From Promethearchaeota archaeon (GTDB lineage: Archaea > Asgardarchaeota > Lokiarchaeia > Sigyniarchaeales > SOKP01): a stretch of 64,000 nucleotides of DNA. The stretch lies in assembly GCA_030599585.1 (NCBI GenBank), contig JAUVNS010000004.1:1-64000 (forward strand), written 5' to 3'. The notes under the pieces were generated by a model that had not been told where the DNA came from, searched no databases, and worked only from the letters and a program-made list of their open reading frames with translations. Shown here one piece after another: positions 2-11,651 of this stretch (position 1 is the stretch's first letter; the number at the start of each line of letters is the position of its first letter). Made by a program: the position numbers and the translations under genes.

Positions 2-886
2 GAGAAAAAACATCGTGGTATAGCAGGATTCATTGTACCAACTGATTACGAAGGAGTTAAAACTGGACCTCATATACCAAAATTGGGCCAACGAGCATCT
101 AATACTTGTTCTGTTGTATTAAAAGATGTGAGAATACCTGAAGAAAATGTATTGGCAAAACCAGGTAGAGGATTTACGTTAGCTATGCAAACTTTTCAAA
201 AAACTAGACCTGCTGTTGCTGCGTTTGCTGTAGGGTGTGCAAGGTCAGCTATGGAATATGCTATTGACTACGCTCAGAAAAGAGAGACTTTCGGAAGACC
301 TATAGGAACTTACCAAGGAATTCAGTTTAAATTAGCAGAGATGTATAAAGATATTGAAGCTGCGAGATTATTAACATATAAAGCTGCGTGGGAAGGGGAT
401 CAGGGTTTAGATAGCAATCTTACATCTTCTATGGCAAAAGCTTTTGCCTCAGATGTTGCAATGAGTGTTACCACTGAAGCTATCCAAGTTTTTGGAGGAT
501 ATGGGTATCTTAGGACCTTTCCTGTAGAAAAATTGTTTAGAGACGCAAAATTGTATCAAATCTACGAAGGTACGTCAGAAATACAGAGGATAGTAATTGC
601 TAGGTTTATCATGAAGAAATATCAGCATGCAATGCCTAATCTATTTGAAATTCCACGAGTAGAAATCGAAGTGGAAGAAAAAACTAAAGAAGTAAGCATA
701 AAAATAGATAAAACTAGCGATGAATTAGGTGGAAGATGGAAGTGCGTAATATGTGCTTATGTTTACGACCCTGTTAACGGCGATCCCGATAGTGGAATAG
801 CTCCTGGGACTCCTTTTGAAGATATTCCAGATGATTGGTTTTGTCCGGTTTGTGGAAGCGATAAAACCAAATTTGCAAAAATCTAA
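2..886 (+). CDS. Acyl-CoA dehydrogenase with C-terminal rubredoxin domain (5'-truncated by window edge)
   Basis: Frame is open back to position 2 ([13 protein letters not shown]...LGQRAS). ACAD C-terminal motifs QVFGGYGY and [12 protein letters not shown]-terminal WKCVIC...DDWFCPVCG is a rubredoxin. Confidence 0.93.
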
Positions 887-5509: not shown

Positions 5510-5902
5510 TTATTCTGTACCCTTCCATAAACCATGAAGATTGCAGTATTCCCTAGCGATCAAACCTGTTGGATCAGTAACAACAAAGGTTGCTTTCGGT
5601 TCCATCCCCGGAGCTAACATTTGTCTCTTATAACAGCTATCGTTACAGATTAGCTCAATCCACATAATATAATGCTCTCCAGTCATAGGATGAGGTGTTC
5701 CCATTGAAATACCAACATCAACGGTAACTTTATTTCCTTCAATCGTTATTTTAGGAACGTGCTTTTCGCCCTTCCAATCAGCGGTTTTTTCCTCCATCAA
5801 GTTCATTGCCTGTCCACAACAGATAGTTTCAGGTGCAGCTGGATGAAGGATTTCTATAACTTTTCCGCAAACTTCACATTTATAAACTTCTTTTTGTTTC
5901 AT
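5510..5902 (-). CDS. dfx: Desulfoferrodoxin (2Fe superoxide reductase)
   Basis: CEVCG...CCG desulforedoxin domain; EKHVP, HPM..EHYI and CNLHG. Confidence 0.96.
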   Translation of the reverse strand: MKQKEVYKCEVCGKVIEILHPAAPETICCGQAMNLMEEKTADWKGEKHVPKITIEGNKVTVDVGISMGTPHPMTGEHYIMWIELICNDSCYKRQMLAPGMEPKATFVVTDPTGLIAREYCNLHGLWKGTE

Positions 5903-5930
5903 ATTGCCTTCACTCTTGTTAGTTTAGTTA

Positions 5931-5951
5931 GTAGTTGTTTCTAATAACTAC
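5931..5951. promoter_or_regulatory. Imperfect palindrome GTAGTT-n9-AACTAC upstream of dfx (candidate operator)
   Basis: Inverted repeat about 30 nt upstream of the dfx ATG. Confidence 0.3.
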
Positions 5952-6002
5952 AAGTTTATTATTTAATTATTTTGTTTAAATTTTATAAGACAAATTCTGA
6001 AT

Positions 6003-6587
6003 TTAGAATTCTTCGCATTTCTTTCTGAAATAAGCTCTTGGATGTGAACAGCTTGGACACGTAAAGTCCTCTGGAAGCTCGTTTAACTCAACTTGGTAGC
6101 CGCATTCAAGACATATCCATATTACTTTATCCCCTCGTTTAAAGAAGATATCGTCGCCTACTAATTTTAACAATTTGCCATACCTCTCTGAATGGTGTTT
6201 TTCTGCGGAGGCAATTGCTCTAAATCTCTTAGCGATTTCTGGATGTCCTTCACTTTCTGCGATGTCAGCGAAACCTGGATACATCTCTTTCCATTCGTAA
6301 TCTTCACCAGCAATAGCAGATTTCAGATTTTCTTCTGTGGTTCCATAAGTAGTAGGACCACCAGCTTTTATCTCTAAATCTTCAAATTTTTCGTCCTTCT
6401 TAAGATCCTGGAGCATTTTATAGTTCCAACCACCGTGCTCTCTTTCTTGGTTTGAAGTTTCTTCGAAAATTTTTGATATGAGCATATATCCTTCCTTTTT
6501 AGCAATTTTTGAAAATAAAGTATACCTATTTCGCGCTTGAGATTCTCCCAAGAATGCAGCGAATAAGTTTTCAATTGTTTTTTTCAT
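6003..6587 (-). CDS. rbr: Rubrerythrin
   Basis: GESQARNRY, two ExxH di-iron motifs, C-terminal CLEC...CPSC rubredoxin-like domain. Confidence 0.95.
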
Positions 6588-6762
6588 TATTTCACCTTTT
6601 TTTTCATTTATTTATTGGAATTTCCAGTAAATTGAATGATTTTGAATATATATTTATTACGCGAATTAAAATGTTTTTACTTATAATTTAATGAAATAAT
6701 TGGATAATCTAAAGTAATAAGTAGTTATTGAATAAAAGTATGAAAATTAGTTTATTATTGCT

Positions 6763-9153
6763 TTAATTGTACGTTTTATAGTCTTCTTTTTGTGGTATCA
6801 CAGGGTATCCATTCCGGTGCCAGACCATCATTCCGCCCGTTAAGTTTCTAATGTCTTTAAAACCTCCTCTAGCTAACAATTGAGCCGCCATCATCGAACG
6901 TGATCCGCTATGACAAATCACAACGATTTCATCACCCTTATACTCTTCTAAAGCATTAATATTATGCATTAATTCTCCTAAGGGCATTAATTTTGCGCTT
7001 TTTATGTGTCCAGTTCTTCCATTATACTCTTGTGGTGTTCTTACATCAATCAGTATTTTTGGTGAATCATCTGAATCAAGTCTTTCGAATAACTCGTTAA
7101 CACTTATATTTGATAACGCTGGGGCATCTGGGCTTCTCAATTCTTTTCTCGTTTTTTCCTCAATTTTCACAGGCGCTTCGATTTCTTTAAGAGACACTGG
7201 ACTCTTTTCTAGTGTGGCAACTAATTTACCTTGTTCTTTACCAAGATATAATAAAGTAACGGCTTCATTTAATTCAGCATAAGCTTCAACACTGGCTTTA
7301 AAACCCGGGTCTGTAGAGTATATTCTTAATTTCTTATCTTCTGGCAATTTTTCAAGAGATTTAATGAGAGCATTTAAAGGACCTGGACATGATAAACCAC
7401 ACGCATCTACTTCAATGTAATCGTCTGATACTGTACTTTTCCTTTCAATCATTTCTTCTATAATATCTTCTGAAACTCCACATTCCGCAGCGATTTCTTC
7501 CGTAGTAGCTATTGCTGTTTTATAGAGTTTATATCCTCCCGATAAATTTTTAACGTGATATCCTTTTTGAATTAGTAATCTCGTTGAAAGATAACCCCTG
7601 AAGCCTACTTCACAGATGACATAGATGTTTTTATCTTTAGGTACTTCGTCCAACCTCTTTCTCAGCTCTAGATCGCTTATATTAGTAGCCCCTTTGATGG
7701 TTCCAATTTGATATTCTTCGAGTGTTCGAACGTCAAGGAAAAAGCTATTATTTGCTCGTATCTTCTCGATTTCGTGCCAGTGCCAAATCGGCATATCTCC
7801 TCTAAGCACATTGGATGCAACAAAACCCGCCATATTTACAGGATCTTTAGCAGAGCCGTAGGGAGGCGCATATGTAAGTTCTAACTCCTCTAGATCGAAA
7901 ACAGTTCCATTGAATTTTATTACCGTAGAAATAACATCAATCCTTTTTTCTGTTCCAGACCCTCCAACTGCTTGAGCACCAAGGATTTTTCCGCTTGGAA
8001 CTTCAAATAACAATTTTAAGGTTATAGGCGTTGCTCCAGGGTAATATCCAGCGTGGTTATTAGGATGAATATATATTTTTTCGTAATTAAGATCCAACTG
8101 TGTTAGTTGTTTTTCAGATAAACCTACTGATGAGACTGTTAAATCAAAAACCTTTACAACAGACGCCCCTAAAATACCATTATATTTTGAGTCGCGACCG
8201 GCAATGACATCAGCAACAATTCTTCCTTGTTTATTTGCTGGACCAGCTAACGGTATGGCTATTGGTTGCTTGGTTATAAGGTTTTTTACTTGGACAGCGT
8301 CTCCTACAGCAAATATTGAAGCGTCAGAGGTTTTCATTTGTTCATCGACTACTATATGCCCTCGTGGGCCAATTTCTAAACTAGCATCTTTTGCTAATTG
8401 ATTTTCTGGTTTTACTCCAATTGCCATAATTATCATGTCTGTTTCAATGCTTTTTCCACTTTTAGGAATGACATGGAAGCGATTCTTATCGTCGCACTTA
8501 AAAGAATCAACGGGGTCTTCTAATTGTAAACACACCCCATTTAGCAATAGTTCTTGATGTACAAATTGAGCAATTTCTTTGTCTAAGGGAGCCATCACTT
8601 GATCTAACATTTCCACTATCTTTACTTTGATCCCTTTATGCTTCAAATTTTCTGCCATCTCTAAACCAATAAAGCCTCCACCAATAATAGTTGCGTGTTT
8701 AATACCGTTATTTTCGGTGAATTGTTTTATTTTAACGGAATCAGGAATTGTTCTTAAACTAAATACGGGAACATCATTTATTCCTTCAAATTGCGGCATT
8801 ATCGGAGACGCACCAGGAGAGAGTACTAAATAATCGTATTCGAGCTCATAAAGGTTATCTTTTTCAAGATTTTTAACTGAAACAGTTTTTTTGTTTCTAT
8901 TAATTGAAATTGCTTCATTATTTATTCTAACTTCAATTTTAAACCGATCCCAGAAATCCTCAGGAGTCATAAGTTCCAAAAGGCTTTGATCCTTTATCAC
9001 GTGGCCAATGTAATAAGGTAAACCACAATTAGCAAAGGAAACATATGGTCCTTTTTCAAGAACTATTATTTCTAAGTCTTCTCTTAACCGTCTAAGTCTA
9101 GCTGCGGTTGAGGCTCCACCCGCTACACCTCCAACAATTACTACTTTCTTCAT
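6763..9153 (-). CDS. FAD-dependent CoA-disulfide/persulfide reductase fused to rhodanese, TusA-like and second rhodanese domains
   Basis: GGVAGG, SFANCGLPY, GGGFIG and YAPPY; rhodanese loops CEVGFRG and CHSGSRS; TusA-type DACGLSCPGP. Confidence 0.92.
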   Translation of the reverse strand: MKKVVIVGGVAGGASTAARLRRLREDLEIIVLEKGPYVSFANCGLPYYIGHVIKDQSLLELMTPEDFWDRFKIEVRINNEAISINRNKKTVSVKNLEKDNLYELEYDYLVLSPGASPIMPQFEGINDVPVFSLRTIPDSVKIKQFTENNGIKHATIIGGGFIGLEMAENLKHKGIKVKIVEMLDQVMAPLDKEIAQFVHQELLLNGVCLQLEDPVDSFKCDDKNRFHVIPKSGKSIETDMIIMAIGVKPENQLAKDASLEIGPRGHIVVDEQMKTSDASIFAVGDAVQVKNLITKQPIAIPLAGPANKQGRIVADVIAGRDSKYNGILGASVVKVFDLTVSSVGLSEKQLTQLDLNYEKIYIHPNNHAGYYPGATPITLKLLFEVPSGKILGAQAVGGSGTEKRIDVISTVIKFNGTVFDLEELELTYAPPYGSAKDPVNMAGFVASNVLRGDMPIWHWHEIEKIRANNSFFLDVRTLEEYQIGTIKGATNISDLELRKRLDEVPKDKNIYVICEVGFRGYLSTRLLIQKGYHVKNLSGGYKLYKTAIATTEEIAAECGVSEDIIEEMIERKSTVSDDYIEVDACGLSCPGPLNALIKSLEKLPEDKKLRIYSTDPGFKASVEAYAELNEAVTLLYLGKEQGKLVATLEKSPVSLKEIEAPVKIEEKTRKELRSPDAPALSNISVNELFERLDSDDSPKILIDVRTPQEYNGRTGHIKSAKLMPLGELMHNINALEEYKGDEIVVICHSGSRSMMAAQLLARGGFKDIRNLTGGMMVWHRNGYPVIPQKEDYKTYN

Positions 9154-9183
9154 TTTATATCCTTCTCAAATATTTTTAGTTGT

Positions 9184-9216
9184 GTGATTGTGATGCACAA
9201 TATCACTACTTATAAT
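9184..9216 (-). promoter_or_regulatory. TATA box with downstream palindromic operator
   Basis: Minus-strand GAAAATTATAAG, then ATTGTG-n3-CACAAT (9187-9201) across the predicted TSS. Confidence 0.45.
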
Positions 9217-9370
9217 TTTCAAAATTAATTATTCCATTTAAAGAGCTTTCTTATTATTTATTTATTGATTTAAGAACTAAAAATCACTTTTTCTAAATTT
9301 AATAGTTTAATAGAAAAAGTTATGATTATTTATAATGCTTTTAAAAAATAAGAAAATTTGTAGAAAAAAA

Positions 9371-10174
9371 TTAACCTCTATAATCTAAAATTATAACTAC
9401 ATCCACAAAAAGCTCGTAATTCTCGTCTTCGTCGTTATCGTGAATTACTACCTTTTCAACTTCATCCAGTTCTCCTTTAATTTCTATAAGATCTGATTCG
9501 TGTACTATTTTAACTTCCGAATGCTTTAATTTTTTCCTTAATTCGACATTACCGGGAATAGATTTTGCGGCCGTCACTACAATTACTCTTCCAGTATATT
9601 TTGTTAACTCCAACGCGAGTTCTAAAGATTCATCTCCAGAATCAATTATGATGACTCTTTTTTCTCTAAGTTCCTCCAAATCAGCCGGAACCGCATCGTA
9701 GACACCCTTTCCAAAAAACTTTTCAACTCCTAATATTACTCGAACACCTAGTTGACAAGAAGTTACAATTTCTATTTCTGGGTTCGTGCCTAAGCGGTAA
9801 TTATCAATTGCAGCTTGTAAAGCATCAGCGGCTAGATTAGAACAATGCATTTTAATAGGAGGAAGGCCATTCAATTCGTCAGCTACATCTTGCCTAGATA
9901 TTTTGTAAGCTTCGTCGAGAGTCATTCCTTTTGCCATTTCTGTGATCATTGAGGATGTACTCACTGCGGATCCGCAGCCAAAAGTTTTAAATCGAATATC
10001 CTCAATTATCTCCACGCCTTCATCATTTTTACCAACTTTTATATATATCCACATAAGATCTCCACAAACAGGATTCCCAACTTGACCAATTCCGTCTGCT
10101 TCTTCTATTTCTCCTACATTTCTCGGGTTCTTGAAATGATCTAATACTTTATCAGAATATTGAGTAGATTTCAT
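9371..10174 (-). CDS. iscU: IscU/NifU-N Fe-S scaffold fused to degenerate thioredoxin-reductase NAD(P)H-domain-like module
   Basis: HFKNPRNVG, GNPVCGD, TFGCGSA and LPPIKMHCSNL. C-terminal ~125 aa follows the TrxR pattern (GVEKFFGKGV...RVIIIDSGDESLELALEL...YELFVDVVII). Confidence 0.9.
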   Translation of the reverse strand: MKSTQYSDKVLDHFKNPRNVGEIEEADGIGQVGNPVCGDLMWIYIKVGKNDEGVEIIEDIRFKTFGCGSAVSTSSMITEMAKGMTLDEAYKISRQDVADELNGLPPIKMHCSNLAADALQAAIDNYRLGTNPEIEIVTSCQLGVRVILGVEKFFGKGVYDAVPADLEELREKRVIIIDSGDESLELALELTKYTGRVIVVTAAKSIPGNVELRKKLKHSEVKIVHESDLIEIKGELDEVEKVVIHDNDEDENYELFVDVVIILDYRG

Positions 10175-10176
10175 TT

Positions 10177-11364
10177 TTATTTTACCTCTTCATATTTTTT
10201 TAGTAGATCAGAAGGTGTTAACGGCGACAACTTTCTCAACCTTTTTACCTGATCTGGTAAGACTTCTATAAGGCCGTCAATGTCAGTTTCACGAGTAGTT
10301 CTTCCTAACGAAACTAGTAAACTTCCATGAGCTTCTTCGTGGAGAAGACCCATTGCAATAAGAGTATGGGACGGTTCTAACGTTTTTGAACTACACGCCG
10401 AACCAGTAGCGGCTGCTATATTATGTTCTTTTAAAGTTAATATTAAAGATTCTCCCTCAATATAGTCAAACCGGAAGTGTGCGTTGTGAGGAAGCCTTTC
10501 TTCGGGATGACCGTTTAAATGCGATTTAGGAATTTCTAAAACATTTTTAATGAGCTTGTCTCTTAAAATTTTTAATTTTTCCGATTCTTGGGGTATTTCT
10601 TTTTTTGCGATTTCAGCAGCTTTAGCAAAACCAACTATACCTGGAATATTTTCAGAGCCTGATCTCATCCCCCTCTCTTGACCTCCACCGATTATAATTG
10701 GATTAACGCGAACTCCTTTTTTTAAATAGAGCGCACCAACCCCTCTAGGACCATAGATATCGTTGGATGAGAGCGTTATAAGATCAATTGGAACTTCTTG
10801 AACATCAATAGGAATCATACTTTCGCTAGCTACGGCATCAGTATGAAACAAAACTCCCTTTTCTTGAGCAATTTTGCTAATTTCTGCAGTCGGTTGTAGC
10901 GTTCCAACTTCATTGCTAGCAGTAGATATAGAAATTAAAATAGTCTCGTCAGTAATTAATCTTTCAAGCTTGTCTAATCGGATTTTTCCAAATCTATCGA
11001 CCCCTACCCTGCTAACTCGAAACCCTTCTCTTTCAAGGTATTTTCCGATGTTTAAAATTGAAATGTGTTCTATTTCAGAAATAATAATATGGTTCCCTTT
11101 TTTCTTTAGTCTCCTCGCTGCACCGATTACTCCCAAATTATTAGATTCAGTCGCACCAGAAGTGAATAAGATATCGGATGAATTGGGGGCGTTTATAAAG
11201 TTCGCAACTTTTTCACGCGATTTTTCTAAAATATCTGTAGCAATATCTCCATCGCAATGAAGAGAAGCTGGATTTGCAAATTTTTCGTTAAAGAATAGTG
11301 TCATTTCAGCCATTACTCTAACATCGACAGGCTTTGCTGCTTGGTTATCAAGGTAAATACTCAT
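10177..11364 (-). CDS. iscS: IscS/NifS-family protein with the PLP lysine replaced by Asp
   Basis: IYLDN, FTSGATESNN, HTDAV and GSACSS; SSNDIYGPRG replaces SxHKxYGPKG. Confidence 0.92.
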   Translation of the reverse strand: MSIYLDNQAAKPVDVRVMAEMTLFFNEKFANPASLHCDGDIATDILEKSREKVANFINAPNSSDILFTSGATESNNLGVIGAARRLKKKGNHIIISEIEHISILNIGKYLEREGFRVSRVGVDRFGKIRLDKLERLITDETILISISTASNEVGTLQPTAEISKIAQEKGVLFHTDAVASESMIPIDVQEVPIDLITLSSNDIYGPRGVGALYLKKGVRVNPIIIGGGQERGMRSGSENIPGIVGFAKAAEIAKKEIPQESEKLKILRDKLIKNVLEIPKSHLNGHPEERLPHNAHFRFDYIEGESLILTLKEHNIAAATGSACSSKTLEPSHTLIAMGLLHEEAHGSLLVSLGRTTRETDIDGLIEVLPDQVKRLRKLSPLTPSDLLKKYEEVK

Positions 11365-11399
11365 ATTTTTTCCCTCTAGATATGATATGTCAGTCTTTG

Positions 11400-11651
11400 C
11401 TATTTATTCTTCTTAAAATAAAAAATCAAATCGTCTCCGTCTTTTACGAATTTTACTAGTTCTGTCCCAGTTCGTTTAGCCCATCTCGTTAAATCTTCTT
11501 CTGCGGCAGGATCATCAGCTAAAACCTTAAAAGTTTGACCGATATCCAAACTCTCTGAAAAAGTCCTCACTTCAAATATTGGTTCTGGACAAAATAAACC
11601 TCTCGTATCCAATTCAGCGTCATATTCTATTTCCTTTTTTTCGTCAGCCAT
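11400..11651 (-). CDS. tusA: TusA/SirA-family sulfur carrier
   Basis: LDTRGLFCPEP and VLADDP motifs. Confidence 0.9.
   Translation of the reverse strand: MADEKKEIEYDAELDTRGLFCPEPIFEVRTFSESLDIGQTFKVLADDPAAEEDLTRWAKRTGTELVKFVKDGDDLIFYFKKNK

Follow-up and report, generated by a model that had tools for sequence, protein, structure and literature searches.

The genes described here form a cluster for sulfur handling, the assembly of iron-sulfur (Fe-S) clusters and oxygen defense in a Promethearchaeota archaeon of the class Lokiarchaeia. They lie in a stretch of 64,000 nucleotides (positions 1 to 64,000 of contig JAUVNS010000004.1) that was analyzed as a whole and is called the window below. Six open reading frames (ORFs), all on the minus strand, occupy window positions 5510-11651. 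In the direction of reading, the first three are tusA (11400..11651), which encodes an 83-aa sulfur carrier (PF01206, E 2.5e-19); an Asp-type, MisS-like iscS (10177..11364; 395 aa; PF00266 at 3e-74); and an iscU fusion (9371..10174; 267 aa; NifU_N at 7e-47 over residues 5-127). They are followed by a CoADR-Rhd-TusA-Rhd reductase (6763..9153; 796 aa) with Pyr_redox_2, dimerization, rhodanese, TusA, and second rhodanese domains; by rubrerythrin (rbr), a peroxidase (6003..6587; NCBIfam NF045767, 225 bits against a cutoff of 200); and by desulfoferrodoxin (dfx), a 2Fe superoxide reductase that has both of its domains, PF06397 and PF01880 (5510..5902). A sequence-only reading had placed six co-oriented genes at exactly these positions, and every domain identity that it proposed was upheld when the calls were checked by Pfam, NCBIfam and PDB searches; the gap that it saw between iscU and the reductase is real (218 bp, 9154-9370). 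The explanation that we favor, with moderate confidence, is that the locus holds two units, an Fe-S assembly cassette (tusA, iscS, iscU) and a defense set (reductase, rbr, dfx), which are functionally allied but not mechanically coupled.

The IscS of the cassette carries the motif SSND, in which Asp202 stands at the position of the lysine that forms the Schiff base with pyridoxal phosphate (PLP). Its best PDB match is Archaeoglobus fulgidus IscS2 (4EB5; E 1e-130 over residues 4-382), which has the identical motif SSNDIYGP, and the same segment aligns with SSNKIYGP of 4R5F, an engineered D199K variant of A. fulgidus IscS2. The mobile-loop cysteine, Cys324, is kept in the motif GSACSS, so that the lysine-to-aspartate exchange with a retained loop cysteine stands as first described. 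The SAC of this loop is present in all of about 80 aligned IscS sequences, with variants such as GSACA and ASACT around it, and the longer motif SAC..K.LEPSH is strongly conserved in Asp-type IscS of all lineages sampled. Earlier examples of Asp-type IscS are those of A. fulgidus and Methanosarcina acetivorans (IscS1); the A. fulgidus protein, which has no PLP (PMC7585200), shows no desulfurase activity and donates a cysteine ligand to the cluster on IscU (PMC7585200; PMC13066941). By analogy, the window IscS is predicted to be unable to make persulfide from cysteine. Its companion TusA has Cys21 in the motif CPEP (residues 21-24), and this cysteine is invariant in 96 cassette TusA sequences. 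Against a profile of cassette TusA the window protein scores 139 bits, whereas none of the genome's other four stand-alone TusA genes exceeds 46 bits.

The product of iscU combines two domains. Its IscU part, which matches PDB entry 7C8M at 1e-50, has all of the cluster ligands (C37, D39, C67, H110, and C111), and these are invariant in 38 sequences. An AlphaFold2 model built with 38 orthologues (mean pLDDT 84) shows two domains separated by a disordered linker at residues 133-144. Foldseek assigned the first domain to IscU structures and the second (residues ~145-267) to the NADPH domain of low-molecular-weight thioredoxin reductase (TrxR), with an rmsd of 2.1-2.4 Å over ~125 residues and an E value of ~1e-10. 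The label "TrxR-like" attached earlier to this domain is correct for the fold and overstated for the function, all of the catalytic motifs being lost: in alignment with Entamoeba TrxR, CAIC is replaced by AVPA, with alanines in place of both redox cysteines, GGGD by DSGD, and HRR by TAA. There is no FAD domain in the fusion, where only TrxR residues ~126-240 are matched and no sequence is left over, and the orthologue alignment contains no conserved cysteine in the fused domain. What is conserved there are structural positions and a C-terminal acidic stretch (D248, E249, Y253, and D258). The domain is under clear constraint, since an identity of 54-97% is maintained within the window's family, here called f1, and of 44-54% in more distant Asgard groups. 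Because every TrxR catalytic motif and the FAD domain have been lost, the sequence and the model together argue that it is a retained fold with a new, noncatalytic job and not a reductase. Of 400 genomes examined in the phylum, 214 have the fused domain. Outside this fusion it is rare: among 1.8 billion representatives, 29 clusters (50% identity) reach E 1e-10, after which the next matches are ordinary TrxRs.

We mapped the window genes onto 40 Asgard neighborhoods of 10-20 kb around fused iscU. In all but two of these loci the fused iscU is preceded by iscS, which in the exceptions is displaced or was not found there, and tusA lies upstream of iscS wherever upstream DNA is present. The intergenic gaps within the cassette are short (6-36 bp) or the genes overlap. 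All 36 complete IscS genes beside a fused iscU encode both SSND and the loop cysteine, and the proposed co-occurrence of the lysine-less IscS with the IscU fusion is therefore without exception in this set. Of the 40 loci, 21 have a gene of ~120 codons for a DsrE-family sulfur carrier (PF02635) in the slot that separates tusA from iscS, and its active-site cysteine is invariant among cassette DsrE sequences. That slot is empty in the window genome; a dsrE of the cassette type (212 bits against the cassette DsrE profile) is found instead on another contig (C20:391640-391975; L172:5641-5976), where it stands by itself, with a PIN-domain gene on one side and an AAA ATPase gene on the other.

To assess how widely the cassette occurs, one genome per prokaryotic species was scanned for DNA encoding SSNDIYGP..GVG, which gave at least 119 loci. 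Linkage was counted in 118 loci by comparing all ORFs with profiles built from the Asgard sequences, the denominators being the loci with enough flanking DNA; the counts and taxa that follow hold among the matches listed. A co-oriented tusA lies upstream of the Asp-type iscS in 85 of 90 loci (94%), dsrE is part of the cassette in 49 of 90, and iscU lies directly downstream of iscS in 86 of 89, with the fused domain in 52 of the 89. The archaea include Asgard members (among them the cultured "Ca. Lokiarchaeum ossiferum"), Bathyarchaeia, Archaeoglobi, Hadarchaeum, Methanocellales, Methanomassiliicoccales, Methanophagales, Thermoplasmata, Hydrothermarchaeales, and a Thermococci metagenome-assembled genome (MAG); the bacteria are labeled Actinomycetota, Coriobacteriia, Deltaproteobacteria, Thermodesulfobacteriota, Stahlbacteria, Acidobacteriota, and others. 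The iscU fusion occurs in Asgard and in most bacterial cassettes and in none of the 13 Bathyarchaeia or four Archaeoglobi. Fused-IscU cassettes also lie on long contigs of bacterial MAGs from multiple phyla (L054, L064, L069, L113, L114, L121, L132, L136, L138, and others). Several Asp-type iscS genes, in Bathyarchaeia MAGs (L065, L164, and L170) and in G416, G419, and G428, are split or have in-frame stops, which could represent assembly error, decay or recoding. In the Thermococci-labeled MAG (L140:715-3654), a rubrerythrin-like gene takes the place of iscU after the Asp-type iscS, and the iscS is preceded by a gene for a 189-aa TusA-domain protein and by another rubrerythrin-like gene.

A quick maximum-likelihood tree places the IscS proteins that accompany fused IscU in a single clade (99% support), and bacterial IscS sequences are nested among those of Asgard archaea. 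This nesting points to transfer and suggests that the whole cassette has moved between archaea and bacteria. Three Lys-type IscS sequences form a clade of their own; with only these three on the outgroup side, the tree is compatible with a single origin of Asp-type IscS. The very wide linkage of the core cassette to TusA, often to DsrE, and to IscU fits a carrier-fed, desulfurase-independent route of sulfur supply. The literature searched, which did not include the study defining the MIS and SMS systems, holds no account of a link between Asp-type IscS and TusA or DsrE, of the IscU fusion, or of placement beside oxygen-defense genes. The defining study is reportedly that of Garcia et al. in 2022. 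A 2026 review describes MIS as free of extra components, as the least studied of the systems, and as having an unknown electron donor (PMC13066941).

The alternative that survives best is that the Asp-type IscS-IscU pair draws directly on free sulfide, with IscS serving as structural partner and ligand, and that TusA and DsrE buffer or remove sulfane sulfur, regulate, or feed thiolation targets. In its favor, A. fulgidus IscS has been described solely as a ligand donor (PMC7585200), MIS and SMS are both held able to use sulfide (PMC13066941), the habitat is apparently sediment (the best-matching run is a sediment metagenome), and half of the cassettes manage without dsrE. We nevertheless consider it unlikely, given that tusA is linked in 94% of loci among the matches listed, its gene overlapping its neighbor or nearly so; that a mere ligand would hardly need so strongly conserved a loop cysteine or the motif SAC..K.LEPSH; and that an IscS unable to make persulfide has nothing to hand to TusA.

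The organism as a whole does not share the cysteine independence that the sequence-only reading had proposed. A second IscS, of the Lys type (SAAAHKIYGP), is encoded at C10:29568-30758, and a plain IscU of ~120 aa at C10:25809-26171, with a MobA-like gene and a beta-CASP nuclease gene between them; no tusA lies near this pair on contig C10. No SufB or SufD match was found in the window genome, whose estimated completeness is 100%, and because SufB is missing the two IscS-IscU sets are probably the whole Fe-S assembly machinery of this Lokiarchaeon. The DNA motif of the Lys-type IscS is present in 104 of 134 genomes of the window's family, and the exact motif in 3 of 89 Thorarchaeia. That Thorarchaeia might have no desulfurase was considered and rejected: the five genomes checked carry SufS (HKMCGP) together with SufB. 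Every genome that we looked at is thus predicted to have some working desulfurase, and the term "cysteine-independent" is for this reason suited to the cassette only and not to the cell.

The proximity of oxygen-defense genes was assessed in 40 genomes outside family f1, 39 of them usable, in which the cassette and all rubrerythrin-family and desulfoferrodoxin genes were located. In 8 of the 39, representing ~6 lineages, the cassette has rbr, dfx, or both no more than 10 kb away, where random placement leads one to expect ~1.2 (Poisson P of 0.0015, counting lineages). The positive lineages are a Stahlbacteria-like trio, Bacterium Zod_Metabat.733, Archaeoglobi JdFR-42, "Ca. Mnemosynella," the Thermococci MAG, and a Promethearchaeum sp. 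By our own estimate, omission of the three-genome clade of one Stahlbacteria contig (L059) leaves 5 positives in 36 genomes against ~1.1 expected, and the link is still unlikely to be due to chance. That contig, from a "Ca. Stahlbacteria" MAG (JAUVZL010000006.1), has ten co-oriented genes on one strand separated by short gaps (L059:907-7570): rbr, a flavin reductase-rubredoxin (Hrb), a flavodiiron-like gene, rbr, dfx, rbr, tusA, dsrE, Asp-type iscS, and fused iscU. Genes with heavy-metal-associated domains lie on both sides of this run.

The positions of the defense genes relative to the cassette vary. They are upstream in the Stahlbacteria-like bacteria and Mnemosynella, flanking in the Thermococci MAG, and downstream in Zod_Metabat.733, in Promethearchaeum, and in two Lokiarchaeial MAGs (L088 and L163), where rbr-dfx follows iscU directly without the reductase; in one Helarchaeales-family genome, rbr is just upstream of tusA. 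Such differences among lineages indicate independent events. Taken together, the comparisons argue that a loose tie of the cassette to oxygen stress is real. This upholds part of the earlier view of the locus as an Fe-S module tied to redox stress, in that placement beside rbr and dfx recurs above chance; the part that made all six genes a single unit does not stand.

It is improbable, in our estimation, that the cassette and the stress genes are functionally unrelated, their adjacency being inherited synteny in one Lokiarchaeial family and the remaining cases coincidence. That the synteny of the block takes in unrelated genes, that no link is seen in Thorarchaeia or in L. ossiferum, and that no operator motif is common to the promoters would all be expected on such an account. 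It does not readily accommodate the recurrence in ~6 lineages, the independent arrangements, or the fact that the genome's only dfx and its main rbr sit here. The locus also has the only four-domain reductase of the genome and the better of its two rbr genes, the other copy being 35% identical to the one at the locus.

The reductase, rbr, and dfx have the appearance of a unit separate from the cassette. Residues 1-548 of the reductase match the CoADR-RHD enzyme 3ICR at 1e-186, and also Npsr (3NTA) and CoA-persulfide reductase (8A56, at 3e-148); Cys43, Cys514, Cys589, and Cys747 are kept by every one of 110 Asgard orthologues. Four-domain reductases of this kind are common in Asgard MAGs, where they are annotated just as FAD-dependent oxidoreductases. 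Characterized relatives convert persulfides and polysulfides to sulfide, and a protective, antioxidant role has been proposed for them (PMC7969121); the window protein is predicted to be an NAD(P)H persulfide/polysulfide reductase. Of the 40 Asgard loci, 21 have its gene after the cassette, all of them in genera g1, g11, and g12 of family f1. All six genes stand in order in 15 of the 40, in g1 and g12 only, g11 having the reductase alone, so that the sequence-only reading's single system of six genes reduces to a cassette that is kept across Asgard and a longer order confined to part of one family. The reductase is not beside the cassette in four further f1 genera (g2, g7, g10, and g13), in the sampled members of other Asgard families (including Helarchaeales-like archaea and Thorarchaeia), or in any non-Asgard archaeon sampled, and the genes downstream of iscU in other lineages (Thorarchaeia, Helarchaeales, and others) are unrelated, encoding a GNAT protein, DNA methylases, a DUF166 protein, and an epimerase.

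At the window locus, a B12-binding protein gene and an ABC transporter gene lie upstream of the six genes, and genes for a CitMHS transporter, a HAD hydrolase, an MFS transporter, and an acyl-CoA dehydrogenase-rubredoxin fusion lie downstream. Where the six-gene order is kept, the unrelated flanks (B12-binding protein, CitMHS, and HAD) are equally syntenic, and the order of cassette and reductase is accordingly one of block synteny. Rubredoxin is the usual electron source of rubrerythrin and desulfoferrodoxin enzymes. The fusion gene, which lies at window positions 2-886 and thus 5 kb away from rbr and dfx, joins the C-terminal part of an acyl-CoA dehydrogenase to a rubredoxin domain.

Nine intergenic regions were aligned to examine the gap between iscU and the reductase. 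Two terminator-like oligo-T runs, 9370-9364 and 9348-9343 (span 9343..9370), stand immediately behind the stop codon of iscU on the minus strand, and the first of them is invariant in the nine relatives. A promoter-like block of the reductase follows on the same strand (9187..9242), comprising a TTTAAAT box (9242-9236, 82 nt before the start codon), the conserved AAGTAGTGAT (9211-9202), and, adjoining it, the perfect palindrome ATTGTG-n3-CACAAT (9201-9187), these last two being in the likely 5' leader of the reductase; the alignment shows conservation of both the TTTAAAT box and the AAGTAGTG block. The palindrome occurs once in the window and may be an operator. It was sought before tusA, rbr, and dfx and is not repeated there, which gives no sign of an operator shared among them. 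In genus g12, the gap holds an opposite-strand, HdrD-like gene (L018:8856-9989, L045:8839-9990, and other g12 genomes), the product of which (377-383 aa) has two CCG domains and a 4Fe-4S dicluster. The conserved T-run, the reductase's own promoter box, the inserted gene of g12, and the unrelated genes found downstream elsewhere together argue for two neighboring units and not one operon. Contigs of relatives (85-95% identity), from two runs labeled metatranscriptomic but probably of DNA, include a dfx-rbr piece and an iscS-tusA piece; none of the contigs bridges 9038-9251, and they were not used as evidence.

These features leave the route that the sequence-only reading had drawn, from polysulfide through two rhodaneses and an internal TusA to IscS, without comparative support, on account of the limited synteny, the T-run and promoter in the gap, and the gene inserted in g12. 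Least probable of all, then, is an integrated six-gene pathway in which polysulfide or persulfide sulfur passes by way of the reductase's rhodanese and TusA domains to free TusA, to Cys324 of IscS, and to IscU, under the protection of rubrerythrin and superoxide reductase: the shared orientation of the six genes, the four invariant sulfur-carrying cysteines of the reductase, the order cassette-reductase-rbr-dfx in g1 and g12, and two deltaproteobacterial MAGs with a gene for a CoADR-like flavoprotein just upstream of tusA speak for it, but known relatives of the reductase turn persulfides into sulfide and do not donate them (PMC7969121), the reductase is apart from the cassette in most groups, flanks of no relevance are just as syntenic, and the gap has its own terminator-like and promoter signals and, in g12, a gene on the other strand.

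The explanation that we favor, of two allied and uncoupled units, can be set out as follows. Unit A (tusA, Asp-type iscS, and the iscU fusion) would be a minimal, ISC-type, MIS-like Fe-S assembly cassette. Sulfane sulfur would be held as a persulfide on Cys21 of TusA, with the help of the DsrE encoded elsewhere; it would pass from TusA to the mobile-loop Cys324 of the IscS dimer, and Cys324 would deliver it to the three-cysteine site of IscU. The IscS cysteine could then become the fourth ligand of the cluster, as it is in the A. fulgidus IscS-IscU structure. The stripped TrxR-type domain would be a docking or regulatory module, and the partner docked by it may be the supplier of two electrons. 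Unit B (CoADR-Rhd-TusA-Rhd, rbr, and dfx) would be a defense set under a promoter of its own, in which an NAD(P)H persulfide/polysulfide reductase that relays sulfur internally is joined by a peroxidase and a superoxide reductase. We infer that the cassette serves to make or remake clusters at times of damage by oxygen or reactive sulfur species, a role suggested by its repeated placement beside oxygen-defense genes in unrelated anaerobes.

Several observations weigh against this explanation. The A. fulgidus IscS-IscU pair is reported to work with its cysteine as a ligand only, and in sulfidic habitats free sulfide may suffice and make a relay unnecessary. About half of the cassettes are missing dsrE. 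The persulfide on TusA could come from the Lys-type IscS in this organism, or from SufS in Thorarchaeia, and the route would then be cysteine dependent. No rbr or dfx was found near the cassette at any of 11 Thorarchaeia loci, and the link is absent in most lineages; in L. ossiferum, the cassette and rbr/dfx are 50 kb apart. One of the positives, the Stahlbacteria contig, was known before the 40-genome set was chosen. MAG labels and bins were taken as deposited, and the "Odin," "Hod," and "Thor" labels that occur inside the Lokiarchaeial clade are clearly unreliable.

More tentatively, the cassette may be the stress-time Fe-S assembly and repair system of anaerobes, with a role like that of SUF in aerobes, fed by sulfane sulfur recycled through TusA and DsrE and not by cysteine, and with a TrxR-type domain that recruits the electron donor; on this speculative account, Asgard archaea and no fewer than five bacterial phyla would have exchanged the fused form. 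In any event, the cassette bears on the question of where minimal archaeal Fe-S systems obtain their sulfur and electrons. The near-universal link of a lysine-less IscS with two persulfide carriers provides concrete candidates for the sulfur donor, and its presence both in Archaeoglobi related to the solved A. fulgidus complex and in L. ossiferum, which is in culture, makes the proposal testable at the bench. The recurrent placement beside rbr and superoxide reductase suggests a condition, oxygen or reactive-sulfur stress, under which a phenotype might be sought. Two IscS-IscU sets in a genome with no SufB also bear on the machinery of the archaeal ancestor of eukaryotes.

CoADR-RHD enzymes, rubrerythrin, desulfoferrodoxin, and Asp-type IscS were all known already, and the locus is best placed by comparison with them. 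The closest known system is A. fulgidus IscS2-IscU (AF0564; 4EB5, 4EB7, and 4HVK; the MIS system, MisS/MisU), which shares with the window the SSNDIYGP motif, the loop cysteine, and an adjacent IscU with all of its ligands; tusA is directly upstream at the Archaeoglobi loci as well (L079, L102, L126, and L160). The window IscU has the stripped TrxR-type C-terminal domain, whereas that of Archaeoglobi does not, and a link to TusA and DsrE is no part of MIS as described in the literature searched. With the low-molecular-weight TrxRs (4A5L, 3F8D, and 2Q7V), the fused domain has the NADPH-domain fold in common, but it is without the FAD domain, the CxxC, and the HRR motif, and its glycine motif is degenerate. 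The E. coli IscS-TusA-TusBCD (DsrEFH-like) relay and the DsrE3/TusA relays use the same carrier families with the same active-site cysteines, and in the described cascade DsrE-type proteins and TusA hand sulfur on from one to the next (PMC11094781). In E. coli, however, a Lys-type IscS supplies TusA, whereas here the flow, if there is any, must be reversed, because an Asp-type IscS cannot generate persulfide; in addition, the cassette DsrE is a single protein of ~120 aa whose sole NCBIfam match, DsrE2, falls far below the cutoff. The reductase aligns end to end over residues 1-548 with CoADR-RHD and Npsr (3ICR, 3NTA, and 6PFZ) and with Enterococcus faecalis CoAPR (8A56), sharing with CoADR-RHD and Npsr the flavoprotein and dimerization domains, the single redox cysteine (Cys43 in SFANCGLPYY), and the rhodanese Cys514, and exceeding them by a TusA domain (Cys589) and a second rhodanese (Cys747). 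Compared with the rbr/dfx oxygen-defense operons of anaerobes, the window rbr and dfx are complete and unremarkable representatives of their families, and the interest lies not in the genes themselves but in their recurrent placement beside an Asp-type cassette.

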